Source: Escherichia coli O127:H6 str. E2348/69 | GTDB taxonomy: Bacteria; Pseudomonadota; Gammaproteobacteria; Enterobacterales; Enterobacteriaceae | NCBI RefSeq assembly: GCF_000026545.1 | Contig: NC_011601.1 | Reading direction: 5' to 3' (one strand) | DNA length: 64,000 bases | Part shown: piece after piece, positions 30,407 to 44,881 of the stretch | How the letters are laid out: each line of letters begins with the position of its first letter | How positions within the stretch are numbered: position 1 is the stretch's first letter | The notes under the pieces: generated by a model | Databases searched by the model: none | What the model was told of the DNA's origin: nothing | What the model saw: only the letters and a program-made list of their open reading frames with translations | Position numbers and translations under genes: made by a program

Positions 30407-31622
30407 CGATAATTCTCTTCATAAGCGCCCCACGTTTAAAAGAGCATTACGCAACATCAGCATGACCAGCATATTTATCACTATGACGCTGATCTGGCTG
30501 CTGCTTTCCGTGACGTCAGTGCTAACCCTGAAACAATACGCGCAAAAAAACCTGGCACTGACAGCAGCAACAATGACTTACAGTCTGGAAGCAGCTGTCG
30601 TTTTTGCCGATGGCCCTGCAGCAACTGAAACACTGGCAGCGCTGGGCCAGCAAGGCCAATTTTCAACTGCAGAAGTGCGTGATAAGCAGCAAAATATTCT
30701 GGCATCCTGGCATTACACCCATAAGGAACCAGGCGATACTTTCAGCAATTTCATAAGCCACTGGCTCTTCCCTGCCCCCATCATTCAGCCGATTCGCCAC
30801 AATGGTGAAGCCATTGGCGAAGTACGCTTAACTGCTCGCGACAGTTCAATCAGCCATTTTATCTGGTTTTCGCTCGCTGTCCTGACCGGTTGTATTCTGC
30901 TGGCATCAGGCATCGCAATTACCCTCACCCGCCATTTGCACAATGGCCTGGTGGAAGCGCTGAAAAATATCACCGATGTCGTACATGATGTGCGTTCTAA
31001 CCGCAATTTTTCCCGACGAGTTTCGGAAGAACGTATCGCTGAGTTTCACCGCTTCGCTCTCGACTTCAACAGTCTGCTGGATGAAATGGAAGAGTGGCAG
31101 CTTCGTTTACAGGCCAAAAATGCGCAGCTTCTACGTACCGCGCTACATGACCCATTAACCGGACTGGCTAACCGCGCAGCGTTTCGTAGCGGCATCAACA
31201 CGTTGATGAACAATTCCGATGCCCGAAAAACGTCGGCGTTACTATTTCTTGATGGCGATAATTTCAAATATATCAATGATACCTGGGGTCATGCGACGGG
31301 CGATAGAGTCTTGATTGAAATAGCAAAACGGTTAGCTGAATTTGGCGGGCTGCGACATAAAGCATACCGCCTGGGCGGCGATGAATTCGCTATGGTGCTC
31401 TATGATGTACAGTCGGAATCTGAAGTGCAGCAGATATGCTCAGCACTGACACAAATTTTTAATCTCCCATTTGATCTTCATAATGGCCATCAGACTACCA
31501 TGACATTAAGCATTGGTTACGCGATGACCATTGAGCACGCCTCTGCGGAAAATTTACAAGAGCTTGCCGATCACAATATGTATCAGGCCAAACACCAGCG
31601 TGCCGAAAAGCTGGTGAGATAA
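30396..31622 (+). CDS. dgcN: Diguanylate cyclase DgcN (YfiN), membrane-bound with HAMP and GGDEF domains
   Basis: 408-aa ORF with N-terminal TM segments and a C-terminal GGDEF domain (RLGGDEF). Confidence 0.9.
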
Positions 31623-31637
31623 CAAGGATATATCGAT

Positions 31638-32120
31638 ATGATAAAGCACCTGGTAGCCCCCCTGATTTTCACCTCGCTAATACTTACTGGCTGCCAGTCC
31701 CCTCAGGGAAAGTTTACTCCTGAGCAAGTCGCCGCTATGCAATCTTATGGATTTACTGAATCCGCCGGCGACTGGTCGCTGGGCTTATCAGATGCCATTC
31801 TGTTCGCAAAAAATGACTACAAATTGCTCCCGGAAAGCCAGCAACAAATCCAAACCATGGCAGCCAAATTGGCCTCGATAGGGCTAACACATGCCCGTAT
31901 GGATGGACACACCGACAACTATGGTGAAGACAGTTACAACGAAGTCTTATCATTAAAACGGGCGAATGTCGTGGCCGATGCATGGGCTATAGGTGGACAA
32001 ATTCCGCGCAGCAATCTCACCACACAGGGTTTAGGAAAAAAATATCCCATAGCCAGTAACAAGACCGCCCAGGGCCGCGCCGAGAACCGCCGCGTCGCAG
32101 TGGTGATTACAACCCCTTAA
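31638..32120 (+). CDS. yfiB: OmpA-family outer-membrane lipoprotein YfiB
   Basis: 160-aa ORF with lipobox LTGCQ and an OmpA-like C-terminal domain. Confidence 0.9.
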   Translation: MIKHLVAPLIFTSLILTGCQSPQGKFTPEQVAAMQSYGFTESAGDWSLGLSDAILFAKNDYKLLPESQQQIQTMAAKLASIGLTHARMDGHTDNYGEDSYNEVLSLKRANVVADAWAIGGQIPRSNLTTQGLGKKYPIASNKTAQGRAENRRVAVVITTP

Positions 32121-32138
32121 AACATGAGCAAACAGACA

Positions 32139-32171
32139 AAAAAAGGGCCAGCCAATTGGCCAGCCCTTCTT
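32139..32171. terminator. Bidirectional hairpin terminator (yfiB 3' end; original rplS terminator displaced to attL)
   Basis: gggccagccaattggccagccc palindrome flanked by an A-run upstream and T-rich sequence downstream. Confidence 0.6.
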
Positions 32172-32196
32172 AACAGGATGTCGCTTAAGCGAAATC

Positions 32197-32210
32197 TTAG
32201 TTAAGACGCT
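32197..32210. repeat. attL core of the P2-like prophage remnant
   Basis: ttagttaagacgct repeated exactly at 43725-43738, where it overlaps the rplS stop codon. Confidence 0.7.
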
Positions 32211-32295
32211 TTTACATGATACCATTGATAAACATGCATTTTTCATTATAAACAGTTAGTTATATGTATCACTAGTGTAGTCAAGTGCAGCCATA

Positions 32296-32305
32296 AACAT
32301 GCTGT
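32296..32305. promoter_or_regulatory. Candidate integrase arm-type binding site (TGTGGACACT)
   Basis: Same motif as the two copies near the other prophage end (43630-43650); resembles the P2 Int arm-site consensus as I recall it. Confidence 0.4.
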
Positions 32306-32323
32306 GTGGGCAGATTGTGGACA

Positions 32324-33253
32324 CTACTTATTTCCCTGTCCAATCTTACCCGCAACTGCCTCGGTAAGCTTTACTAAGGTTTCAAGTTCATTTTTGTCTA
32401 ATTTTCTTGCTTCAATAATTTCAGTAGTCTGCCCTGATTCTAGTTTTCCAACTCTTGAGCTAAAATTAATTTTATCCAGAAGGTCTATCATATCGATATC
32501 TTTCTGGCTAGCCATTACAAGCTTTATAATGGCATAGCTTTCCTCACGTGAACGTTTTATTGCCTCGTAATAGCGAAACTCATCCATCGTAACCCGATAT
32601 TGCTTCAAAAAGAAAAATGCGATTAACTCCAAGAAAATCAACACGCCAAAATTAGGGAGAAGATACATTACCTTGGTTACCGCATCATCCTTAGCATCAA
32701 TTACATGTGATTGAGAATAGAAGAAACCTAATCCAACTATTGCAAAACAAACACCGACTAATAAATAAAGACTACCGCGAGAATATATGTTTTTCGCAAG
32801 ACCTTCAGAGCTATTAATCAAACCTTTAAGATAAAAATCCAGAGATTCATCTTCATCAGCAGCAGCCCTTTCCTCTTGAGCCTTCTTGAGTAGTTTTATC
32901 TCATTTATAATATCGACAATATTAAACATCGATGATTTGTCGACTGAATCACTCCCTGTAATTCTCATAAACATTCTTTGGATTGGAGACACACCATAGA
33001 TAATGGTGTAAACGATTACAAATGACACTGCGAATATTGACCTGATAAAGCTCGGCAAATGTGTAAGATCTGCTCTCGCACTGGGAAATAAATAATAAAA
33101 GGTTGAGTCTAATATCCCTGTAGCAAAAATTACATTTGCAACTAGAAAGACTGCACCTATCTCAACTAAATTATAAAAACCACGAGTGCGTACCCTAATG
33201 ACTTTGGCCTCGGTCATTCTTGGAGGTGTTTCGATGGTTGGCTCACTCATCAT
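32324..33253 (-). CDS. Hypothetical 4-TM membrane protein (309 aa), phage cargo of unknown function
   Basis: ORF with four hydrophobic segments and a charged, probably coiled-coil C-terminal region; visibly AT-rich; AGGA RBS; ATG overlaps the integrase stop (ATGATGAGTGA). Confidence 0.6.
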   Translation of the reverse strand: MMSEPTIETPPRMTEAKVIRVRTRGFYNLVEIGAVFLVANVIFATGILDSTFYYLFPSARADLTHLPSFIRSIFAVSFVIVYTIIYGVSPIQRMFMRITGSDSVDKSSMFNIVDIINEIKLLKKAQEERAAADEDESLDFYLKGLINSSEGLAKNIYSRGSLYLLVGVCFAIVGLGFFYSQSHVIDAKDDAVTKVMYLLPNFGVLIFLELIAFFFLKQYRVTMDEFRYYEAIKRSREESYAIIKLVMASQKDIDMIDLLDKINFSSRVGKLESGQTTEIIEARKLDKNELETLVKLTEAVAGKIGQGNK

Positions 33254-33602
33254 ATAATCCTGTTAAATTAGAAATAGGGTTAAGAGTTACAGCTTCTTCT
33301 AAATGATCTGGTGCAAAATGAGCGTATCTCATGGTTTCCCTAATGTTAGAATGGCCCAAGATTCGTTGCAGTACTAAAATGTTCCCACCATTCATCATAA
33401 AGTGACTCGCAAATGTATGACGTAACACATTCGTTTTTTGCCCTTCAGCTAACTCTATATCGGTCAGAGCGAGCATTTTCTTGAACTCCTGATAGCAGGG
33501 GTGGAACATTTTTCCCTGTAAAGGAGCCAACTCGTCATATAGCCACCGAGGGATCGGTACTGTACGATTCTTCTTTCCCTTGGTTTGGGAGAAGGCTCTG
33601 CA
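33243..33602 (-). pseudogene. Tyrosine recombinase (phage integrase) C-terminal fragment
   Basis: ...TKGKKNRTVPIPRWLYDELAPLQGKMFHPCYQEF...RHTFASHFMMNGGNILVLQRILGHSNIRETMRYAHFAPDHLEEAV; the N-terminal two-thirds of the gene is absent. Confidence 0.8.
33568..33593. other. Left inversion crossover site (pix/gix/cix-like, 26 bp)
   Basis: ttcttctttcccTTggtttgggagaa; inner half-site is the exact inverted copy of the inner half of the right site at 35454-35479. Confidence 0.6.
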
Positions 33603-34079
33603 TTACCTGTTGGCGTCCCTGTTCCGTGGCCTTCAGCCACACCGCCAACAGGCTGGCTGAAATGCAATGGTGCAGCTTTTTCTGCTGAAGAATACCCGGA
33701 ACTGGCAAAGGCTTATCCGGCAAATAAATTGCCTGATTTACGTGGTGAGTTTATTCGTGGCTGGGATGACGGACGGGGGATTGATACAGGTCGCTCTATT
33801 TTAAGTATTCAGGGGTATGCAACGGAGGATCATGCTCATGGATTACCGTCAAGATCCACGATTGTGACTGATGCAACGATTAATTTCTATTTTGATGAAA
33901 GCTGGGTAAATAGTGGCACTGACATTATCAAAAGAGGAAACACAAACGATGCCGGATTACCAGCACCGGATTATGGAACCTTTAAAACATATAAACAATC
34001 AGTGGCTGGTTTAGGTGCCGCAGCCTCAGAAACGCGTCCGCGTAATATTGCATTTAACTATATCGTGAGGTCAGCCTGA
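33585..34079 (+). CDS. Tail fibre C-terminal variable domain (one invertible-segment orientation)
   Basis: ...GLGEGSALPVGVPVPWPSATPPTGWLKCNGAAFSAEEYPELAKAYP..., tail-collar-like C-terminus; no constant N-terminal tail-fibre part upstream. Confidence 0.7.
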   Translation: MGEGSALPVGVPVPWPSATPPTGWLKCNGAAFSAEEYPELAKAYPANKLPDLRGEFIRGWDDGRGIDTGRSILSIQGYATEDHAHGLPSRSTIVTDATINFYFDESWVNSGTDIIKRGNTNDAGLPAPDYGTFKTYKQSVAGLGAAASETRPRNIAFNYIVRSA

Positions 34080-34681
34080 TGCATAAAGCAATATTAAATA
34101 GTGAGCTTATTGCAACAAAGGCAGGGGATGTTACCGTTTATAACTACGATGGTGAAACACGGGAATATATTTCCACGTCAACTGAATATCTTGCGGTTGG
34201 CGTCGGTATCCCGGCATGTTCTTGTTTAGATGCGCCAGTTACACATAAAGCTGGTTATGCAATCTGCCGTTCTGCAGATTTTAACTCATGGGAATATGTG
34301 CCAGACCATCGCGGTGAAATCATCTATAGCACAGAAACAGGAGAATCGAAAGAAATCACAGCTCCGGGTGATTATCCTGAAAATACAACCACTATCGCCC
34401 CGTTAACGCCATACGATGAATGGGATGGTGAGAAATGGGTAACAGATACTGTGGCACAGCATAGCGCCGCAGTAGGCGCGGCAGAAGCACAGCGTCAGTC
34501 ACTGATTGATAATGCAATGGCTTCCATTAGTCTGATTCAGCTGAAATTGCAGGCCGGACGGAATCTGACGCAGGCAGAAACCGCCCGACTTAACGCTGCG
34601 CTGGATTACATTGACGCGGTGACGGCAACAGATACCAGCACCGCGCCGGATGTCATCTGGCCTGAACTGCCGGAGGCGTAG
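34079..34681 (+). CDS. Tail fibre assembly protein (Tfa)
   Basis: 200-aa ORF with the typical Tfa C-terminus (...RLNAALDYIDAVTATDTSTAPDVIWPELPEA). Confidence 0.8.
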   Translation: MHKAILNSELIATKAGDVTVYNYDGETREYISTSTEYLAVGVGIPACSCLDAPVTHKAGYAICRSADFNSWEYVPDHRGEIIYSTETGESKEITAPGDYPENTTTIAPLTPYDEWDGEKWVTDTVAQHSAAVGAAEAQRQSLIDNAMASISLIQLKLQAGRNLTQAETARLNAALDYIDAVTATDTSTAPDVIWPELPEA

Positions 34682-35093
34682 GCCATTCAATATCTGGCGC
34701 ACCGGAAGTATCGACCAGTTCCAGTGCGTCCAGATAATCCAGCCACAAATTATATTGCGCCAGTTCCTCACCTTTCAGACGACCAATAGCCGCTTTACCA
34801 GGCCATTGTTTACTGTTCATATAATCGTTGGCCTGATTAATCAGTTGCTGCTTTTCAAGTTCGGCTGCAGCAATCTGTTCCTCATGTGTTGGTGGTGGAA
34901 TTTCAGTCCATGCAGGAAAACTATTTTCTCCAGCGATACGGATTTTTCCTTTCGGCGGTAATCCGGAAAACTCAATATACACTTGCTCATCAACTTCAAC
35001 AGCATCATCTGGCCATGAGTCAGCTTGAGTGTAATCCTCTTTCATCTCCAGCGGATAGAAAGAGTTTGTAGTCGCGGAATATATGTAATTCAT
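34653..35093 (-). CDS. Tail fibre assembly protein, alternative (opposite orientation)
   Basis: 146-aa ORF ending ...YNLWLDYLDALELVDTSGAPDIEWPTPPAVQAR, convergent with the other tfa. Confidence 0.8.
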   Translation of the reverse strand: MNYIYSATTNSFYPLEMKEDYTQADSWPDDAVEVDEQVYIEFSGLPPKGKIRIAGENSFPAWTEIPPPTHEEQIAAAELEKQQLINQANDYMNSKQWPGKAAIGRLKGEELAQYNLWLDYLDALELVDTSGAPDIEWPTPPAVQAR

Positions 35094-35114
35094 TTTTCAC
35101 TCCATATAGCTAAA

Positions 35115-35480
35115 TTAACAGCCTAACGCTAAAAATGAAGCGCCGAGGCCAGGAGTACTGGCTCTGGATATAAATTTAACCGGGTCGGGACTAAAACCTG
35201 CACAGGCAATATAACCAACAGCCCCGCTATCTGGTGTGTAGTCTTGTGAGACCAAAACACGCAGACATCTGTTTGGAAATGCAATCGGGAAATGGGTTAC
35301 TACATCCTGTGCAATGCCTGGTGCGCCGATTGAGCCCCACTGAAGAATAAAACCTGATGGAAATTTTTGATATCCAGTACCTGAAACAGAAAGCGTGAAG
35401 CTACCCATATCAGGTATCTGATTCGCCCCTGTCCCTACATTCCTTTTAGCCGCTTCTCCCAAACCAACGTTTAAGAAAAT
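35115..35480 (-). CDS. Alternative tail fibre C-terminal variable domain
   Basis: Reverse ORF 35115..35564 reads ...[17 protein letters not shown]... across the right crossover site; the part inside the invertible segment ends near 35480. Confidence 0.65.
35454..35479. other. Right inversion crossover site (pix/gix/cix-like, 26 bp)
   Basis: ttctcccaaaccAAcgtttaagaaaa, imperfect dyad, immediately upstream of the invertase gene. Confidence 0.65.
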
Positions 35481-35533
35481 GTAGTTTTCCCCCCTAGCTG
35501 GCATCATTTGGGCTTTTGCATGAGGGAAAACAA

Positions 35534-36112
35534 ATGCAGGTTGGCTATGTGCGCGTATCAACAAATGAACAAAATACCGCGCTACAGCGTGACGCGCTGG
35601 AACGGTCGGGATGTGAGCTAATTTTCGAGGATAAAATCAGCGGTAAATCGACAAACAGGCCAAGGTTAAATCGCGCACTCAGGCAACTTAATGCCGGTGA
35701 TACTCTCGTTGTCTGGAAGCTCGACAGGCTCGGGCGTAGCATGCGCCATCTTGTCTCTATGACTGAAGAGCTTCGCCAGCGAGGGGTTAATTTCAGAAGC
35801 CTGACCGACAGTATTGATACCTCAACCCCGATGGGGCGATTTTTCTTTCACATCATGGGCGCTCTTGCAGAAATGGAACGCGAGTTAATCGTCGAACGAA
35901 CCCGCGCCGGGCTGGATGCAGCCCGGGCACAAGGCAGGATCGGAGGTCGTAGGCCGAAGCTGACGCCTGATGAATGGGCTCAGGCTGGCCGGTTGATTGC
36001 GGCCGGAGAATCCCGACAGCGTGTTGCACTGATTTTTGATGTGGGCATATCGACGCTGTATAAAAAATTTCCGGCGACAAATCCCGTTGTGTCAGCCACC
36101 GGCGAACCCTGA
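35534..36112 (+). CDS. Serine-recombinase DNA invertase (Pin/Gin/Hin/Cin family)
   Basis: [38 protein letters not shown]... with catalytic Ser in the VRVST motif and a C-terminal HTH. Confidence 0.9.
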
Positions 36113-36176
36113 CAAATAGCCGCATACAGGCGTAAACCAGACAATATCACTCACCTCAACTAACGGAGTTAAACGG

Positions 36177-37364
36177 ATGAGTGATTATCATCACGGTGTC
36201 GAGGTCGTCGAAATTAACGACGGCACCCGCACAATCTCGACGGTATCAACGGCGGTCGTTGGCATGGTCTGCACAGCCAGTGATGCTGACGCCGGGGCTT
36301 TCCCTCTCAATGAGCCGGTGCTGATTACCAACCCACAAAGCGCCATCGCAAAAGCCGGTACTAAAGGTACCCTGGCAAAATCCTTACAGCTCATCGCTAA
36401 CCAGTCAAAACCGGTTGTCGTTGTTGTGCGTGTCGCGGAGGGTACCGGCGACGGCGAAGAGGCACAGGCGCAAACCATTTCTAACATCATCGGCACCACG
36501 AATGAGAATGGCAAATATACCGGGATGAAAGCGCTGTTAACGGCGAAAGCGGTCACCGGCGTGAAGCCACGTATTCTCGGTGTGCCGGGGCTCGATACTC
36601 AGGAGGTGGCGACCGCGCTTGTCTCCGTGGCTCAGAAGCTGCGCGCTTTCGCCTATGTCAGCGCGTGGGGCTGTAAAACCATTGCTGACGTTATCGCCTA
36701 CCGCGAAAACTTCAGCGCCCGTGAGCTCATGATTATCTGGCCTGACTTCCTCGGGTGGGATACCACGGCCAACGCGACCACAACCAGTTATGCAACAGCG
36801 ATCGCGTTGGGACTGCGCGCAAAAATCGACAATGATACAGGCTGGCATAAAACCCTGTCAAACGTCGGCATCAATGGCGTCACCGGTATCAGTGCGTCGG
36901 TCTTCTGGGATTTGCAGGAATCTGGCACTGATGCCGACCTGCTGAATGAGGCCGGTGTTACGACGCTGATTCGTGCCGATGGTTTCCGCTTCTGGGGTAA
37001 CCGTAATTGCTCCGATGACCCGCTGTTTCAGTTTGAGAACTACACCCGCACCGCACAGGTCATAGCCGACACAATAGCCGAGGGGCATATGTGGGCGAAC
37101 GATAAGCCCATCACCGCGACGTTGATTCGCGACATTATCGACGGCATCAACGCGAAATTCCGCGAGCTGAAAACCGGCGGTTACATCATCGATGCGACGT
37201 GCTGGTTTGACGAAGAGGCCAACAGTAAAGAAACCCTGAAAGCCGGGAAACTGTTTATCGATTATGACTATACGCCGGTGCCGCCACTCGAACACCTGAC
37301 CTTACGCCAGCGCATTACTGATAAATATCTGGCGAATCTTATCTCGTCCGTCAACAGCAAATAA
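36177..37364 (+). CDS. Contractile tail sheath protein (P2 gpFI-like)
   Basis: 395-aa ORF MSDYHHGVEVVEINDGTRTISTVSTAVVGMVCTASDAD..., order and size as P2 FI. Confidence 0.9.
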   Translation: MSDYHHGVEVVEINDGTRTISTVSTAVVGMVCTASDADAGAFPLNEPVLITNPQSAIAKAGTKGTLAKSLQLIANQSKPVVVVVRVAEGTGDGEEAQAQTISNIIGTTNENGKYTGMKALLTAKAVTGVKPRILGVPGLDTQEVATALVSVAQKLRAFAYVSAWGCKTIADVIAYRENFSARELMIIWPDFLGWDTTANATTTSYATAIALGLRAKIDNDTGWHKTLSNVGINGVTGISASVFWDLQESGTDADLLNEAGVTTLIRADGFRFWGNRNCSDDPLFQFENYTRTAQVIADTIAEGHMWANDKPITATLIRDIIDGINAKFRELKTGGYIIDATCWFDEEANSKETLKAGKLFIDYDYTPVPPLEHLTLRQRITDKYLANLISSVNSK

Positions 37365-37376
37365 GGAGCCTGACAA

Positions 37377-37895
37377 ATGGCATTACCGCGCAAGCTCAAA
37401 CTCATGAACCTGTTTATCGATGGGGTGAGTTATCTCGGCGTCGTGCAGTCCGTCACGCTGCCGAAATTAACCCGCAAGCTCGAGAACTATCGCGGCGGCG
37501 GGATGAATGGTTCGGCACCGGTCGACCTCGGCCTCGATGACGATGCGCTGTCGGCTGAAATCTCTCTCGGCGGCTTCCCCGATGACGCTATCTGGTCGTT
37601 ATACGCTGCCACCGGCGCGGCCTCCGTACCGCTACGTTTTGCCGGGTCTTACCAGCGTGATGACACCGGCGAGACCGTGCCGGTTGAGGTTGTTCTCCGT
37701 GGCCGTCAGAAAGAAATCGACCTCGGTGAAGCCAAACAGGGCGAAGACACCGAGTCGAAAATCGCTCTCGCGTGTACCTATTTCAAGCTGACGATGAATG
37801 GCTCGGAACTGGTGGAAATCGACACCGTGAACCTCATCGAAAAAGTGAACGGCACCGACATGCTCGAGGCGCACCGACAAAATATCGGCCTGTAA
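37377..37895 (+). CDS. Tail tube protein (P2 gpFII-like)
   Basis: 172-aa ORF MALPRKLKLMNLFIDGVSYLGVVQSVTLPKL... Confidence 0.9.
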   Translation: MALPRKLKLMNLFIDGVSYLGVVQSVTLPKLTRKLENYRGGGMNGSAPVDLGLDDDALSAEISLGGFPDDAIWSLYAATGAASVPLRFAGSYQRDDTGETVPVEVVLRGRQKEIDLGEAKQGEDTESKIALACTYFKLTMNGSELVEIDTVNLIEKVNGTDMLEAHRQNIGL

Positions 37896-37957
37896 TTTAT
37901 GCCCCGGTCAGCATGGCTGGCCGGGCATCCTGAAACCAGAATTTAACGAGAAATATC

Positions 37958-38230
37958 ATGGATAAAACTAACGAAAATATCGTCACTCTGATTAAACCCA
38001 TTAAGCGCGGTGAGCAGGTTATTACTGACGTCACCCTGTTAAAACCGTGTGCCGGAACCCTTCGCGGTGTCAGCCTGGCATCAGTCGCAAACTCTGACGT
38101 CGATGCGCTGATTAAAGTGCTGCCGCGCATGACCATGCCGTCGCTGACCGAGCAGGAAGCCGCCGCACTGGAGCTGCCCGACCTGCTGTCGTTTGCCGGT
38201 AAGGTGGTCGGTTTTTTGTCACCGAGTTAG
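37958..38230 (+). CDS. Tail assembly chaperone gpE
   Basis: 90-aa ORF between FII and T; contains the slippery heptamer T-TTT-TTG at 38212-38218. Confidence 0.8.
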   Translation: MDKTNENIVTLIKPIKRGEQVITDVTLLKPCAGTLRGVSLASVANSDVDALIKVLPRMTMPSLTEQEAAALELPDLLSFAGKVVGFLSPS

Positions 38231-38391
38231 GCGGCGTAATCTTCCCGCAAAAACTCACGGTCGATGACCTGATGGCTGACATAGCGGTAATTTTCCACTG
38301 GTCGCCATCAGACCTGTATCCCATGAGCCTGACCGAACTCGTCAACTGGCGCGAAAAAGCGCTACAGCGAAGCGGAAACACGAATGAGTAA
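37958..38391 (+). CDS. gpE+E' extended product via programmed -1 frameshift (predicted)
   Basis: -1 frame after TTTTTTG is open to TAA at 38389-38391, overlapping the start of the tape-measure gene. Confidence 0.5.
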
Positions 38392-40813
38392 TAACCTCAA
38401 ACTCGAAGTGCTGCTGAAAGCTGTCGACCAGGCGACCCGACCCTTTAAAGCGATCCAGACGGCGAGCAAATCGCTGTCTGGCGATATCCGCACGACTCAG
38501 CAATCCCTGCGTGATTTGAATGGTCAGGCATCGAAAATCGACGGTTTTCGCAAAACCAGCGCACAACTGGCGGTAACCGGACAGGCACTGGAAAAGGCAA
38601 AACAGGAAGCCGCCGAGCTGGCGGTGCAGTTTAAAAACACGGAACGGCCAACGGCGGCACAGGCCAGAGTGCTGGAATCAGCAAAGCGTTCGGCTGAAGG
38701 GTTACAGGCAAAATATAACAGCCTCACCCAATCGGTGAAGCGGCAACAGACCGAGCTCGGCAAAGCGGGGATTAATACGCGCAATCTGTCGAATGATGAA
38801 AGCCGCCTGAAAAACTCTATCAATGAAACTACCGCACAACTTAACCGCCAGCGTGAAGCACTGGCGCGGGTCAGCGCGCAACAGGCAAAACTCAGCGCAG
38901 TACAAAAACGCTATCAGGCAGGAAAGGCACTGGCTGGAAATGCGGCATCGATGGGCGCTGCCGGGATAGGCATGGCAACGACCGGAGCGCTTGCCGGTGT
39001 TGCACTGATGAAGCCCGGTTATGATTTTGCTCAGAAAAACTCTGAGTTACAGGCCGTTCTCGGTGTCGGTAAAGACTCAGCTGATATGGTGGCGCTCCGC
39101 AAACAGGCGCGCCAGCTCGGTGACAACACCGCCGCGTCGGCTGATGATGCTGCCGGTGCTCAGATTATTATTGCAAAGGCTGGCGGCGATGCTGCGGCTA
39201 TTCAGGCCGCTACCCCCGTAACACTCGATATGGCGCTCGCAAACCGTCGAACGATGGAAGAGAACGCCGGGTTATTGATGGGGATGCGCTCTGCCTTCCA
39301 GCTTTCAAACGATAAGGTCGCCCATATCGGTGATGTTCTGTCGATGACGATGAACAAAACCGCCGCCGACTTTGACGGCCTGAGTGATGCGCTGACTTAT
39401 GCCGCGCCGGTGGCGAAAAATGCCGGGGTCAGCATCGAAGAAACAGCCGCAATGGTCGGCGCACTGCATGACGCCAAAATTACGGGATCGATGGCGGGTA
39501 CGGGGAGCCGTGCCGTATTAAGTCGCCTGCAGGCTCCAACGGGCAAAGCGTATGACGCCATTAAAGAGCTCGGCGTCAAAACGGCTGATGGTAAGGGGAA
39601 CACACGTCCAATATTTACCATCCTGAAAGAAATGCAGCGGAGTTTTGATAAAAACAACCTCGGCACCGGCCAGCGTGCCGAATATATGAAAACCATTTTC
39701 GGTGAAGAGGCCAGCTCGTCGGCTGCGGTACTCATGACCGCTGCCTCGAGCGGGAAATTAGACCAGCTTACCGCTTCCCTTAAAGCATCGGATGGCAAAA
39801 CCGCTGAGCTGGTGAAGGTCATGCAGGATAACCTCGGCGGCGATTTTAAAGAGTTTCAGTCTGCGTATGAAGCGGTAGGAACCGACCTGTTTGACCAGCA
39901 AGAGTCATCATTAAGAAAGCTGGTACAAACGACGACAGGGTATGTATTGAGGCTCGATAGCTGGATCCAAAAGAACAAATCTCTTGCCACCACGCTGGGT
40001 GTCATTACGGCGGCAGCTGTCGGTATTGTGGGGATGATTGGTGCCATTGGCCTTGTATCGTGGCCGGTAATTACTGGCATTAACGCCATCATTTCGGCGG
40101 CTGGTGCGCTTGGTGCGGTCTTTACGACAATCAGTGGCGGGGTCATTGCGGCTATTGGTGCTATTACGTGGCCTGTCGTGGCGGTAGCGGCGGCTGTTGT
40201 CGCTGGCGCGCTGCTTATCCGTAAATACTGGGAGCCTGTCAGCGCATTCTTTGCCGGTGTGGTCGAGGGGCTCATGAGTGCCTTTGCGCCGGTCGGGGAA
40301 ATGTTCGCCCCGCTGGCACCCATTTTCGACGGTCTCGGCGAAAAACTTCGCGGCGTCTGGCAGTGGTTTAAAGACCTGATAGCGCCGGTGAAAGCGACTC
40401 AGGACACGCTCAACAGTTGTCGTGATGTTGGGGTTATGTTCGGTCAGACGCTGGCCGATGCACTGCTGATGCCGCTTAACGCCTTTAACAAGCTGCGAAG
40501 CGGGATTGACTGGGTGCTCGAAAAACTCGGCATTATCAACAAAGAATCCAGCTCACTTGACCAGACTGCGGCGAAAGCCAATGCAGCGACGCAGAACGGT
40601 TACAGCCCGGCAATCAGCGCATACAACAGCTATCAGCCGGTCACGGCACCCGCCGGTAAAACCTACATCGACCAGAGTCGGCCAATCTATCAAATCACCG
40701 TGCCGGGCAATGGTATGCCGGGAGATCGGTTGGGTAATGATTTGCAGGATGCATTAGAAAAGTATGAGCGCGAGAAGCGCGCCAAAGCCCGCGCAAGCAT
40801 GATGCATGACTAA
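38384..40813 (+). CDS. Tail tape measure protein (P2 gpT-like)
   Basis: 809-aa ORF with coiled-coil N-terminus and Gly/Ala-rich hydrophobic central region. Confidence 0.9.
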   Translation: MSNNLKLEVLLKAVDQATRPFKAIQTASKSLSGDIRTTQQSLRDLNGQASKIDGFRKTSAQLAVTGQALEKAKQEAAELAVQFKNTERPTAAQARVLESAKRSAEGLQAKYNSLTQSVKRQQTELGKAGINTRNLSNDESRLKNSINETTAQLNRQREALARVSAQQAKLSAVQKRYQAGKALAGNAASMGAAGIGMATTGALAGVALMKPGYDFAQKNSELQAVLGVGKDSADMVALRKQARQLGDNTAASADDAAGAQIIIAKAGGDAAAIQAATPVTLDMALANRRTMEENAGLLMGMRSAFQLSNDKVAHIGDVLSMTMNKTAADFDGLSDALTYAAPVAKNAGVSIEETAAMVGALHDAKITGSMAGTGSRAVLSRLQAPTGKAYDAIKELGVKTADGKGNTRPIFTILKEMQRSFDKNNLGTGQRAEYMKTIFGEEASSSAAVLMTAASSGKLDQLTASLKASDGKTAELVKVMQDNLGGDFKEFQSAYEAVGTDLFDQQESSLRKLVQTTTGYVLRLDSWIQKNKSLATTLGVITAAAVGIVGMIGAIGLVSWPVITGINAIISAAGALGAVFTTISGGVIAAIGAITWPVVAVAAAVVAGALLIRKYWEPVSAFFAGVVEGLMSAFAPVGEMFAPLAPIFDGLGEKLRGVWQWFKDLIAPVKATQDTLNSCRDVGVMFGQTLADALLMPLNAFNKLRSGIDWVLEKLGIINKESSSLDQTAAKANAATQNGYSPAISAYNSYQPVTAPAGKTYIDQSRPIYQITVPGNGMPGDRLGNDLQDALEKYEREKRAKARASMMHD

Positions 40814-40824
40814 GGAGACTGATT

Positions 40825-41289
40825 ATGATGCTGGCATTAGGTATGTTTGTTTTTATGCGTCAGACGCTGCCCTACCAGAGCATGCAGCGCAGCGCGGATT
40901 ATAGCTGGGCGTCAAACTCTCGCATCGGGAAGCGTGACGCTTTTCAGTATCTCGGCGAGGGGGAAGATAAAATCACCCTGAGCGGTGACCTGTATCCTGA
41001 GCTGACCGGCGGTAAGCTCACGATGCTGGCGCTTTATGCAATGGCTGAACAGGGGCGCGCATGGCCGCTTATCTCTGGCTCAGGCTGGATTTACGGGATG
41101 TTTGTTGTCAGTAATGTCTCGGAGACCGGCACGGTATTTTTTGAGGATGGGACGCCACGAAAAATCAGCTTCACCCTGTCACTGACCCGTGTCGATGAGT
41201 CGCTCGCCGCGGTGTATGGCGATATTGGAAAACAGGCCGAAAGTCTGGTCGGGAAAGCTGGCGATCTGCTGTCGATGGTGGGGGCGTAA
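40825..41289 (+). CDS. Tail protein gpU-like
   Basis: 154-aa ORF MMLALGMFVFMRQTLPYQSMQRSADYSWAS... following T. Confidence 0.85.
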   Translation: MMLALGMFVFMRQTLPYQSMQRSADYSWASNSRIGKRDAFQYLGEGEDKITLSGDLYPELTGGKLTMLALYAMAEQGRAWPLISGSGWIYGMFVVSNVSETGTVFFEDGTPRKISFTLSLTRVDESLAAVYGDIGKQAESLVGKAGDLLSMVGA

Positions 41290-41291
41290 TC

Positions 41292-42464
41292 ATGCTGGAT
41301 ATTATCACCGGCGCGGGTGCCACGCTGACGCCCGACTTTATGCTGACACTGGAAAGCAAAGATATCACCGGCAATATCAGTGACCGGCTGATTAACCTCT
41401 CGATGACGGACAATCGGGGTTTTGAGGCCGACCAGCTCTACATCGAGCTCGACGATACTGACGGTCTGGTCGCATTGCCGATTCGCGGTGCGGTGCTGTC
41501 GCTGTATCTCGGGTGGAAAGGTTTCTCTCTGGTCAGCAAGGGGCGATTTACCGTCGATGAGGTAGAGCACCGGGGGGCGCCGGATACGGTAACCATTCGC
41601 GCCCGGGGTGCGGATTTTCGCGGGACGCTTAATTCCCGTCGTGAGGAGTCATGGCATGACACCACGCTCGGCGCAATCGTCAGCTCGATAGCTGAGCGGA
41701 ACAAGTTAACGGCCAGCGTCACTGATTCTCTTGCGGGGATCCAGATTCCGCATATCGACCAGTCTCAGGAATCCGACGCCGTTTTCCTGACTCGCCTCGC
41801 AGAACGCAACGGCGGTGCGGTCTCAGTGAAAGCGGGTAGATTGCTGATGCTCAAAGCGGGAAGCGGTACCACTGCCAGTGGAAAAGCTATTCCTCAAATT
41901 ACCATCCAGCGCGGTGACGGTGACCGGCATCAGTTTGCCATTGCCGACCGTGGCGCTTACACCGGCGTAACCGCTAAGTGGCTGCACACTAAAGACCCGA
42001 AACCGGCGAAACAAAAGCAGACAGTGAAGCTGAAACGTAAGCCCAAAGAGCAACACCTCCGGGCGCTACAGCACCCGAAAGCAAAACCAGTGAGCAGTAA
42101 AGTCACGGCCAAAAAGCAAAAAGAGCAGGAAGCCCGCGAGGGTGAATACATGGCCGGTGAGGCTGACAACGTTTTCGCGCTGACGACCATTTACGCGACA
42201 AAGGCGCAAGCGATGCGTGCAGCTCAGGCGAAGTGGGATAAATTGCAGCGTGGGGTTGCGGAGTTCTCCATTATGTTAGCGACCGGCCGCGAGGATATTT
42301 ACCCCGAAACGCCGGTCAGGGTCTCAGGCTTTAAGAGCGTTATAGACGAGCAAGCATGGATAATCAGCAGGGTGACCCATAATCTCGGTGGGAATGGCTT
42401 CACAACGGCTGTAGAGCTTGAGGTGATGCTTTCGGATGTAGAATATGACACCGACGAATCTTGA
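41292..42464 (+). CDS. Tail protein gpD-like (late control gene D)
   Basis: 390-aa ORF following U. Confidence 0.85.
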   Translation: MLDIITGAGATLTPDFMLTLESKDITGNISDRLINLSMTDNRGFEADQLYIELDDTDGLVALPIRGAVLSLYLGWKGFSLVSKGRFTVDEVEHRGAPDTVTIRARGADFRGTLNSRREESWHDTTLGAIVSSIAERNKLTASVTDSLAGIQIPHIDQSQESDAVFLTRLAERNGGAVSVKAGRLLMLKAGSGTTASGKAIPQITIQRGDGDRHQFAIADRGAYTGVTAKWLHTKDPKPAKQKQTVKLKRKPKEQHLRALQHPKAKPVSSKVTAKKQKEQEAREGEYMAGEADNVFALTTIYATKAQAMRAAQAKWDKLQRGVAEFSIMLATGREDIYPETPVRVSGFKSVIDEQAWIISRVTHNLGGNGFTTAVELEVMLSDVEYDTDES

Positions 42465-42540
42465 TTATACAAACAAAACTTGCAAATGTAAGATTCAAGT
42501 TTATTATCCCCCTCAAGTCAGCAAGGAGAGGGAAGAAATT

Positions 42541-42759
42541 ATGATGCACTGTCCGCTATGTCAGGATGCAGCACACGCACGATCAAGCCGGTACCTGAGC
42601 ACTGAAACGAAAGAGCGCTACCACCAGTGCCAGAACATCAACTGCGGTTGCACTTTCGTCACCCACGAGAGCCTTGCTCGTTTTATCGTGAAGCCAGGAG
42701 AAATTGAACCCGCCCCACCCCACCCGTCTAAATACCAACAACATCAGCTCTGGCTTTAA
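42541..42759 (+). CDS. ogr: Late-gene transcription activator Ogr (zinc finger)
   Basis: MMHCPLCQDAAHARSSRYLSTETKERYHQCQNINCGCTF... with a Cys4 arrangement; ATG at 42541 preceded by aaggagag. Confidence 0.9.
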   Translation: MMHCPLCQDAAHARSSRYLSTETKERYHQCQNINCGCTFVTHESLARFIVKPGEIEPAPPHPSKYQQHQLWL

Positions 42760-42796
42760 ATCAAAGGCCTGCTTTGCAGGCCTTCTTGTATCAAAC

Positions 42797-43519
42797 TTAG
42801 ATTGGTAATGAAAAAGCTATCGCCTTGCAGATATGTTGCTTTGTTAACGCAGGATGTGTTGAAGCAAAAAGCGATAAAAAGCTTTTAGCTTCAACCGAAT
42901 CATCATTAAGCGAAATATTATCTTTGATGAATGGATGAAGTGCGATTCCAGCGCTCATAGATAACGGCACATAGTTGATGAATATATCTTCTTTTGTGAG
43001 ACCTAGCTGGTTTGCTTGTGCTTCAAATGAATTAGCATCTAAATAATCACGTATACGTTCTTTGGCCTCTGGTCGGAGTCTCGATTCTTGACGCGGCAGA
43101 GAAAGCATCTTATCAATATCTCCCCATGAGATAGGAACCTCAAAATAGCCACCACCTTCTTCCTCTAGAGGTGCCGGGAAATTCACATAAAAATAGTTTT
43201 TTTGCTGTGTAGGGTCGTTCATGGACTGACGATGATAGTTATAAATACTTCTAATACGGTTGGCCTTGTTATGATGCCGAGCATTTCGAATAACAAGCAT
43301 CATTAATAATTCAGGTTTCAAATACCAGTCAGGCTCTAATCCATTGCTTTGCATGTTGTCATACAAATTATGAAAAGCATTAAGTTGTGTATTCAGGCCC
43401 GATTCTAAATTGCCAATTGCTTCAGCACGATCAATAGCCAACAAACGCTGTAGTGACCAGTTAGACTCTAATAAAACCCGAAAGGCCTGTGCAAGATCTT
43501 CAAAAGAGTGGGAAAGCAT
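42797..43519 (-). CDS. Hypothetical soluble protein (240 aa), phage cargo; possible HEPN-like Rx4H motif
   Basis: AT-rich ORF with AAGGA RBS between ogr and attR; contains ...LVIRNARHHNKANR... (R-x4-H pattern). Confidence 0.6.
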   Translation of the reverse strand: MLSHSFEDLAQAFRVLLESNWSLQRLLAIDRAEAIGNLESGLNTQLNAFHNLYDNMQSNGLEPDWYLKPELLMMLVIRNARHHNKANRIRSIYNYHRQSMNDPTQQKNYFYVNFPAPLEEEGGGYFEVPISWGDIDKMLSLPRQESRLRPEAKERIRDYLDANSFEAQANQLGLTKEDIFINYVPLSMSAGIALHPFIKDNISLNDDSVEAKSFLSLFASTHPALTKQHICKAIAFSLPI

Positions 43520-43629
43520 CCTTTACGTCCTTATACGCACATTCATGAGATTTCAGTGTAAACCAAAAGTACTAAACTAACAGTATCAGGTAGATGATGG
43601 ATAGATGGGCTGGCAAGTATTCTATCTGC

Positions 43630-43650
43630 GTGGACACTCTATGGACACTC
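43630..43650. promoter_or_regulatory. Candidate integrase arm-type sites (two direct copies of TGGACACTC)
   Basis: gtggacactctatggacactc; same motif as 32296-32305 at the other prophage end. Confidence 0.4.
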
Positions 43651-43686
43651 AAAATAAAAAAGGGGTTAGCTCTACGCTAACCCCTT
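43651..43686 (-). terminator. Rho-independent terminator now serving rplS (prophage-encoded)
   Basis: aggggttagctctacgctaacccct hairpin with T-run on the transcribed strand, about 40 bp downstream of the rplS stop, on the prophage side of attR. Confidence 0.7.
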
Positions 43687-43724
43687 GTTTTATAACACGC
43701 TTTGGATGTGGCGTGAACGCGTTA

Positions 43725-44075
<351 letters not shown>

Positions 44076-44113
44076 TTAATCTCTTATCCTGGGTAAACTG
44101 ATATCTCGGGGGC

Positions 44114-44881
44114 TTACGCCATCCCATCATGTTTATGTTGCTGTTGTGCGTGTTCCGTTTTGAACTCCGCCAGCAACCTTGCTTGCTCTTCAGTCAGAGC
44201 CAGGTTTTCCAGAAGTTCAGGTCTTCTAAGCCAGGTACGGCCCAGCGACTGTTTCAAACGCCAGCGACGTATCTCGGCATGGTTGCCCGACAGTAACACT
44301 GGCGGAACTTCCATCCCTTCTAACACCTCAGGCCGCGTATAGTGCGGGCAATCCAGCAATCCTTCAGCAAAGGAATCTTCCGTTGCCGAGGCTTCATGTC
44401 CCAGTACTCCCGGAATAAACCGGGAAACGGAGTCAATCAGCGTCATTGCTGGTAACTCACCACCACTGAGAACGTAATCGCCGATTGACCATTCTTCGTC
44501 AATTTCGGTTTGGATCACGCGCTCATCTATACCTTCGTAGCGACCGCACACCAGAATCAATTTTTGATTCGTTGCCAGCTCGCTGACGCCCGCTTGATCA
44601 AGCTTGCGTCCCTGTGGTGACAGATAAATCACCTTTGCGCCTTCACCCGCCGCGGCTTTTGCTGCATGAATGGCGTCCCGCAAGGGTTGCACCATCATTA
44701 ACATCCCCGGTCCGCCGCCGTAAGGACGATCGTCCACGGTACGGTGCCGGTCATACGTGAAGTCGCGAGGACTCCAGCTCTGGATGCTCAGCAGGCCATT
44801 TTTAACTGCCCGGCCAGTTACCCCGTAATCGGTAATTGCGCGGAACATTTCAGGAAACAGGCTAATTATGCCAATCCACAT
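44114..44881 (-). CDS. trmD: tRNA (guanine37-N1)-methyltransferase
   Basis: 255-aa [34 protein letters not shown]... Confidence 0.97.

Follow-up and report, generated by a model that had tools for sequence, protein, structure and literature searches.

The window analysed here, a stretch of 64,000 nucleotides on contig NC_011601.1 of the enteropathogenic Escherichia coli O127:H6 str. E2348/69, contains a Pin/Gin-type tail-fibre inversion switch that belongs to a P2-like prophage at the 3' end of rplS. The switch consists of two crossover sites enclosing two alternative fibre tips and their tail fibre assembly genes (tfa), followed by the gene of a DNA invertase, and on its left it borders directly on what is left of the prophage integrase gene (int). 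Its parts, with positions in the window, are as follows:

33243..33581, minus strand: integrase remnant, the C-terminal 112 codons of a 345-amino-acid P2-family tyrosine integrase (annotation and profiles)
33568..33593: left crossover site, a hybrid, TTCTTCTTTCCC-TT-GGTTTGGGAGAA, 12+2+12 (three-way alignment with strain FORC 064)
33582..35465: invertible segment, 1,884 bp between the cores (published inversion boundaries 33580-35467)
33582..34079, plus strand: alternative tail-fibre C-terminal tip 1 (phrog_523 and phrog_3100, C-terminal ends of the profiles; 'phage tail protein' in RefSeq)
34079..34681, plus strand: tfa, partner of tip 1 (phrog_105, E = 2e-96)
34653..35093, minus strand: tfa, partner of tip 2 (phrog_188, E = 2e-65)
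35115..35465, minus strand: alternative tail-fibre C-terminal tip 2, with a gp53-like domain (phrog_2557 and phrog_1396, C-terminal ends)
35454..35479: right crossover site, TTCTCCCAAACC-AA-CGTTTAAGAAAA, its core inverted relative to that of the left site (site comparison)
35534..36112, plus strand: serine DNA invertase of the Din family (Pin/Gin/Cin/Hin), 192 amino acids, Ser9 present, beginning 54 nt past the right site

The arrangement includes a perfect 15-nt inverted repeat, TTGGTTTGGGAGAAG / CTTCTCCCAAACCAA, at 33580-33594 and 35453-35467, which has no other match in the window with up to two mismatches allowed (chance expectation 0.09 matches). Each crossover site measures 26 bp, with 12-bp half-sites around a 2-bp core, and the two are inverted with matching cores. 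The right site is identical to that of phage 500465-1. The left site is composite, as its outer half (33568-33579, TTCTTCTTTCCC) derives from int and its inner half (33582-33593, GGTTTGGGAGAA) from the fibre gene, on either side of the core TT at 33580-33581. The PHROG profiles arrange the two fibre tips and two tfa genes as convergent pairs, and the invertase aligns over residues 1-183 with Gin (3UJ3, 4M6F; E = 1e-85), with VRVST and the nucleophilic serine in place, and matches the DNA invertase profile phrog_125. The initial annotation of this DNA had proposed two inverted 26-bp sites around convergent tip and tfa pairs, with a Pin/Gin-type invertase just past the right site, and all of these elements are present as described; homology and site comparison with e14, Mu-like, P1-like and P2-like elements likewise agree with its description of a standard G-segment layout.

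The switch departs from its family in one respect. Tips and tfa genes are there, but they are not joined to a constant N-terminal fibre part outside the segment, since the constant part of fibre gene H is absent and int sequence adjoins the left site instead. Consequently, the switch has no gene to complete and tip 1 is headless. The missing constant part had also been noticed in the initial annotation, and the alignment with FORC 064 described below is in accord with it.

Inversion of the segment

Phase variation in E2348/69 was investigated by Goldberg et al. (2014) by paired-end sequencing with confirmation by polymerase chain reaction (PCR), and Table S1 of that work lists the interval NC_011601.1 2977580-2979467, labelled 'P2', as 93 ± 4 % forward (PMC4272514). 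The inverted repeat is printed there as TTGTTTGGGAGAAG, one G short of the 15-nt arm, the G having probably been lost in text extraction. The published coordinate of the Mu-like locus minus 40,787 gives the left repeat of the Mu-like prophage in NZ_LT827011.1, and the same offset places 2977580 at window position 33580, the 1,887-bp span ending at 35467. Since inversion was measured at exactly these coordinates, the hybrid left site is functional.

The quality of the sites was expressed with a log-odds matrix built from 18 distinct true half-sites of 9 elements (e14 of K-12, a Mu-like prophage, a P1-like phage, a Yersinia phage and five P2-like elements), all extracted from sequence and with the hybrid site left out. 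The right site falls inside the range of true sites (24.6-33.0 bits), whereas the hybrid left site reaches 20.0 bits, of which the inner half contributes 16.1 bits and the outer half only 3.9 bits. One good half-site hence suffices for measurable inversion. A weakened site would fit the low flipped fraction, which is not diagnostic, however, as the other P2-like locus of the strain is also 90% forward; the fractions listed for e14 and the Mu-like locus are 51% and 60%, respectively (PMC4272514). All three E2348/69 assemblies carry the forward orientation, consistent with 93%. The accessible text of the same publication makes no mention of a hybrid left site or of a prophage deletion ending there (PMC4272514).

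The flipped state was also found in other strains. Joining 352 nt of H from FORC 064, through the core, to the reverse complement of the far end of the segment gives a predicted flipped junction of 752 nt, which is present at 100% identity over its whole length in strains 1190 and PCN033, bearers of the same prophage. The segment is thus found in both orientations, a point for which the initial annotation had suggested PCR or long reads as a check, and PCR validation in E2348/69 itself has been published (PMC4272514).

The deletion junction

A search with the int fragment identified 13 other complete genomes in which the fragment belongs to a full 345-amino-acid integrase and an intact prophage occupies the same site. 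One of them, FORC 064, carries a complete P2-type prophage at the same insertion site with the same cargo genes at both ends. This prophage was reassembled in the orientation of the window from two loci and compared with the window, with the following result:

31000-33586: int side, 98.9% identity to FORC 064
33578-33787: fibre gene H, 92% identity to FORC 064
33788-34028: mosaic patch in the tip, no FORC 064 match
34029-44500: 99.3% identity to FORC 064, no gap

Relative to FORC 064, exactly 21,073 bp are missing from E2348/69, and nothing is inserted at the junction. The lost DNA comprises int from about codon 230, the repressor, the replication, head, lysis and baseplate genes, and the first ~200 codons of H; in the intact prophages the left site is full-length and lies inside H, about 200 codons into the gene.

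Two side observations concern this comparison. The stretch of ~240 bp at 33788-34028 in tip 1 represents a mosaic replacement of the receptor-binding end. The FORC 064 prophage, taken here as intact, may itself be defective, since the annotation of its replication endonuclease gene includes an internal stop; it also has a DUF4062 cargo gene, placed between the V and S-like tail genes (L002 19553-20896 and 32101-34323 for these two features).

The junction was resolved by a three-way alignment, in which intact int reads TTCTTCTTTCCC-TT-CGTTTTAGTGAA, the left site of intact H reads TTCTCAAAAACC-TT-GGTTTGGGAGAA, and the window reads TTCTTCTTTCCC-TT-GGTTTGGGAGAA. Int-specific sequence extends to 33577 and fibre-specific sequence begins at 33582, so the exchange took place inside CCTT (33578-33581), which includes the core TT. 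The novel joint thereby coincides with the 2-bp core of the true site. This bears out the proposal in the initial annotation that the deletion ends at or within the crossover site, with flanks of 99% identity and both endpoints in the same 4 bp. The accompanying statement that int is encoded across the left site holds in part: the int reading frame does run straight into the site, but the residues FSQT that were read as int are encoded by the fibre-derived half-site. Intact int has FTKT at this place, and int-derived sequence stops at the core.

That the junction arose in assembly, or that the FORC 064-type prophages are derived and E2348/69 ancestral, is effectively refuted. Over the 4 kb compared (window 32200-36200), three independent assemblies of E2348/69 agree at 100% identity, and paired-end mapping and PCR by Goldberg et al. 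made use of these very boundaries (PMC4272514). As for the direction of change, 13 genomes hold a complete, coherent P2-type genome between the same flanks, and the remnant cannot be ancestral because its int fragment has no start codon.

A look-alike crossover site in the integrase gene

Every 26-mer of the intact prophage was scored with the matrix described above (32,594 positions). The two true sites obtain 33.0 and 29.1 bits, and third in rank, as the best non-cognate site of the entire prophage, stands the int sequence at the deletion endpoint, with 12.9 bits. This quasi-site comprises nt 688-713 of intact int (2994-3019 of locus L004) and encodes FTKTKGKKNR; its inner half, TTCACTAAAACG, accounts for 9.0 bits and its outer half for 3.9 bits. 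When only the 2,028 26-mers with a TT core are considered, it ranks second, directly after the true left site, and the next candidate has 1.5 bits. The pseudo-site in int that the initial annotation had postulated is accordingly carried by the intact int genes at that position.

Orientation is equally specific. On the plus strand of the intact prophage the cores read TT in the int quasi-site, TT in the left site and AA in the right site. The quasi-site thus shares its core dinucleotide with the left site, and since these two cores are direct, recombination between them yields a deletion and not an inversion, which is the product observed. The core of the right site is inverted relative to both, and exchange with it gives inversion.

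The invertase and action in trans

Compared with its FORC 064 counterpart, the resident invertase has a single substitution, G44R (codon 35663-35665, in the motif R-P-G-L), and all ten other invertases aligned have Gly there. Gly44 aligns with Gly47 of gamma-delta resolvase, two residues past Arg45, which we take to be an active-site residue of that enzyme. No mention of Gly44 was found in the Gin structure paper. The substitution may inactivate the resident invertase or alter the control of the enzyme.

The invertase gene contains a Fis-like 15-mer, GAGGATAAAATCAGC, with its centre at nt 101, and a matching 15-mer lies at the same position in pinE, in the Mu-like gin, in a Salmonella P2-like gene and in a Yersinia gene. 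A loose pattern gave no convincing match in the invertase gene for a second Fis site 48 bp away, and a promoter and terminator scan of the locus returned no enrichment over shuffled sequence.

The present-day flipping of the segment may be due to an enzyme other than the resident invertase, and which enzyme is responsible is something that we infer. The Mu-like prophage of E2348/69 retains only 31 gin codons, abutting a truncated eutC (L013 4674-4766, corresponding to NZ_LT827011.1 2710673-2710765). Its segment is nevertheless reported to flip (PMC4272514), so at least one invertase acts in trans in this strain. For users of E2348/69 this means that the Mu-like segment must be flipped in trans, its own invertase gene being truncated.

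The other P2-like prophage of the strain offers some observations of its own (L014 4977-12446). Its tail block from sheath to U lies on the opposite strand to the fibre and invertase genes, and its D-like gene looks truncated. Sites at 2897, 3336 and 4897 of the same locus match the published shufflon. An aberrant invertase event was considered as the cause of the tail-block orientation and rejected, as only these three shufflon sites score and no invertase-like sites occur at the block boundaries.

Origin of the deletion

In combination, the position of the junction and the nature of its two partners make it very probable that the deletion was produced by an invertase in a single direct step. 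The ancestor would have been a complete P2-like prophage with the left site inside H, in a cell that contained its own invertase or a related one. The invertase would have synapsed the left site of H with the look-alike in int, 21 kb away and with its core in the same orientation, and strand exchange at the 2-bp core would then have excised 21,073 bp and left the hybrid site behind. What remains has lost excision and particle production; its 1.9-kb segment still flips at a low level in E2348/69 cultures and exchanges tips for which no gene head is left. The structure of the hybrid site, an int outer half, TT and a fibre inner half, is what strand exchange at the core predicts. The core-located junction and the rank and orientation of the quasi-site support the aberrant invertase-mediated deletion put forward in the initial annotation, the dependence on the enzyme being a point that we infer. 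Neither of the observations that the annotation named as refuting applies, as the endpoints lie at the crossover site and inversion has been measured.

The same junction could also be read as the outcome of illegitimate recombination, by slippage or end-joining at CCTT (CCTTGGTTT versus CCTTCGTTT), the coincidence with the core then being due to chance. At the junction the partners do have 4 bp in perfect agreement (8 of 9 bp), and wild-type invertases, as is generally known from Gin and Hin topology, disfavour deletion. However, the intact prophage offers 2.4 million pairs of positions that share a 4-mer and 85,493 pairs that match at 8 of 9 bases, numbers so large that a homology-driven accident had many other options. 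The pair actually used connects the core of a true site with that of the single highest-scoring quasi-site of the 32.6 kb, and does so in the required orientation; the bases shared are the conserved part of the recombinase site (ACC-core-GGTTT). We therefore consider an accident at CCTT highly unlikely; a rare invertase deletion at a secondary site fits far better than random microhomology.

A further variant retains the invertase and makes its path indirect, either by inversion between the quasi-site and the right site followed by deletion, or by intermolecular exchange between sister chromosomes or with a phage genome in replication. The quasi-site (TT) and the right site (AA) are inverted, the geometry that invertases favour, and the final product would have the same sequence. 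More events would be needed, though, and each such route still requires a direct-site or an intermolecular exchange. On the present sequence the direct and indirect invertase routes are inseparable; we regard the indirect ones as no likelier than the accident at CCTT and, if anything, less so, and give preference to the single direct exchange.

Several points weigh against a direct deletion by an invertase. Gin and Hin strongly prefer inverted sites within an invertasome containing Fis and the enhancer, and deletion between direct sites is disfavoured; the event must consequently have been rare. The perfect microhomology of 4 bp (8 of 9 bp) at the junction is of a kind that a recombinase-independent deletion could use, and the outer half of the quasi-site is poor at 3.9 bits. 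With G44R at an otherwise invariant glycine, the resident invertase is perhaps inactive now, and a second full-length invertase (WP_001165545.1) is encoded in the other P2-like prophage of E2348/69. Finally, no independent second fusion of int to a crossover site was found in viral contigs, species-representative genomes or metagenome contigs. This search used the degenerate pattern TTCYCCNAAACCAARGGNAARAARAAYCG and gave only two matches, both viral, of which one (L097) was read and rejected as a fusion, being an intact int gene that naturally encodes FSKTK. The exact 33-nt junction had 0 matches in metagenome contigs.

The integrase motif as source of the quasi-site

The FTKTKGKKNR stretch is the conserved tyrosine recombinase box with the first catalytic arginine. 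The motif was compared in 80 related P2-family int genes from viral contigs (L017-L096), whose products show 58-94% amino-acid identity. The motif peptide FTKTKGKKNRTVP is conserved in these genes, and most of them have a quasi-site with an AA core at the same nucleotide (688). In many of the 80 genes it is the top-scoring 26-mer of the gene, with 17 reaching at least 10 bits. The look-alike arises as a by-product, because of the codon choice for the conserved int motif.

A wider reading of these data is that the quasi-site is no accident of one phage but is encoded by the P2-family Arg-I box F-T-K-T-K-G-K-K-N-R-T-V-P (TTCACnAAAACn-AA-rGGnAArAArAA) and constitutes a recurrent route by which prophages are grounded. 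We hold this to be unlikely as a whole. If true, any P2-like phage equipped with a Pin-type fibre switch would carry within itself a weak target of its own invertase, and deletion from int to the fibre site would be a recurrent one-step path to grounded, domesticated prophages. A bolder variant would have G44R mark an invertase with altered control that enabled the deletion.

The prophage remnant and its surroundings

The switch is part of a remnant with the following outline:

32197..43738: whole P2-like prophage remnant, ~11.5 kb, between yfiB and the 3' end of rplS (annotation and flanking repeat)
36177..42759, plus strand: surviving P2-type tail module and late activator, namely sheath, tube, E/E', tape measure, U, D and ogr (RefSeq annotation)

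The element is enclosed by the 14-bp direct repeat TTAGTTAAGACGCT at 32197-32210 and 43725-43738, a likely, putative att core; the length of ~11.5 kb follows from this repeat, which delimits the element. Its right copy overlaps the stop-codon end of rplS, so the phage inserts in the 3' end of that gene and restores it. In another P2-like prophage with a different int (L097), host homology stops at the same base, 32210.

In the RefSeq annotation the left part reads yfiR-dgcN-yfiB, a hypothetical protein of 309 amino acids (minus strand) and a tyrosine integrase pseudogene 'missing N-terminus' (minus strand). The middle consists of 'phage tail protein' (plus), tfa (plus), tfa (minus), a gp53-like fibre tip (minus) and a 'recombinase family protein' (plus), and the right part of P2-type tail genes, ogr, a hypothetical protein of 240 amino acids (minus) and rplS. 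The two hypothetical genes are cargo open reading frames at the prophage ends, just within the att repeats (309 amino acids at 32324-33253 and 240 amino acids at 42797-43519, both on the minus strand), and both are conserved in FORC 064. Searches of PHROGs, PADLOC and NCBIfam assigned them no function, the one match being a weak PHROG of unknown function.

Elsewhere in the window, a frameshifted IS4 transposase lies beside bamD (~23900-24900) and a frameshifted IS110 transposase beside an rrn operon (11570-12635). The region 55000-64000 holds a decayed island at ssrA, with IS21 and integrase pseudogenes, that ends in espC.

Comparison with known systems

The type of switch is textbook knowledge and its flipping at these coordinates is published (PMC4272514), whereas the junction at base level, the rank that the quasi-site obtains, the conserved Int motif that encodes it and G44R are new. 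For those who work with E2348/69, the flipped subpopulation of 7% at this locus is functionally silent.

The closest counterpart is the P-segment/PinE system of e14 in E. coli K-12. The two invertases are 80% identical, the e14 right site (TTCTCCCAAACC-AA-CGTTTATGAAAA) is one base off, and there is no difference in the inner half of the left site or in the AA/TT core. A fibre tip and tfa converge there on a tfa and a second fibre tip, with the invertase next in order, and e14, too, is a defective prophage whose segment flips in culture (PMC4272514). Unlike the E2348/69 remnant, in which int sequence has taken the place of the outer half-site and all that lay upstream, e14 still possesses its constant fibre part (stfP/ycfK), located upstream of the left site CTCTCGAAAACC-TT-GGTTTGGGAGAA. 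The forward fraction is 51% in e14 versus 93% in E2348/69 (PMC4272514).

The G segment of Mu with Gin and the C segment of P1 with Cin are more distant, the invertase being 72-76% identical to the Mu-like Gin and the P1-like Cin. These systems have in common with the present one the 26-bp sites of 12+2+12 and the switching of fibre tips. The Mu-like sites examined have a GA/TC core, in contrast to AA/TT here, and the host element here is a P2-type prophage.

The intact rplS prophages (FORC 064, PCN033, 1190 and others) agree with the remnant in insertion site and in the cargo genes at the ends, and are 99% identical in the shared parts. They differ in keeping the 21,073 bp and a full left site, TTCTCAAAAACC-TT-GGTTTGGGAGAA, within H, and the FORC 064-type tip 1 differs over 33788-34028.

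With respect to the deletion, the relevant precedent is found in the cix quasi-sites, the primary work on which was reportedly carried out by Iida, Hiestand-Nauer and colleagues in 1984-1987. Recombination of invertases at secondary sites was known earlier mainly from laboratory selections with Cin. As described by Arber, Cin of P1 rarely uses secondary crossover sites, a true site recombining with a weak look-alike that shares its core dinucleotide to give new fusions (PMC4270481). Those events were selected in the laboratory on plasmids or P1, while the E2348/69 junction is a natural chromosomal fossil, in which the partner lies in the integrase gene of the phage itself and the product is a 21-kb deletion that disabled the prophage. 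It thus provides a clean natural example, defined to 4 bp, of an invertase apparently acting off-target and removing two thirds of its own phage, and suggests that an enzyme of programmed variation can also drive the decay and lock-in of a prophage.

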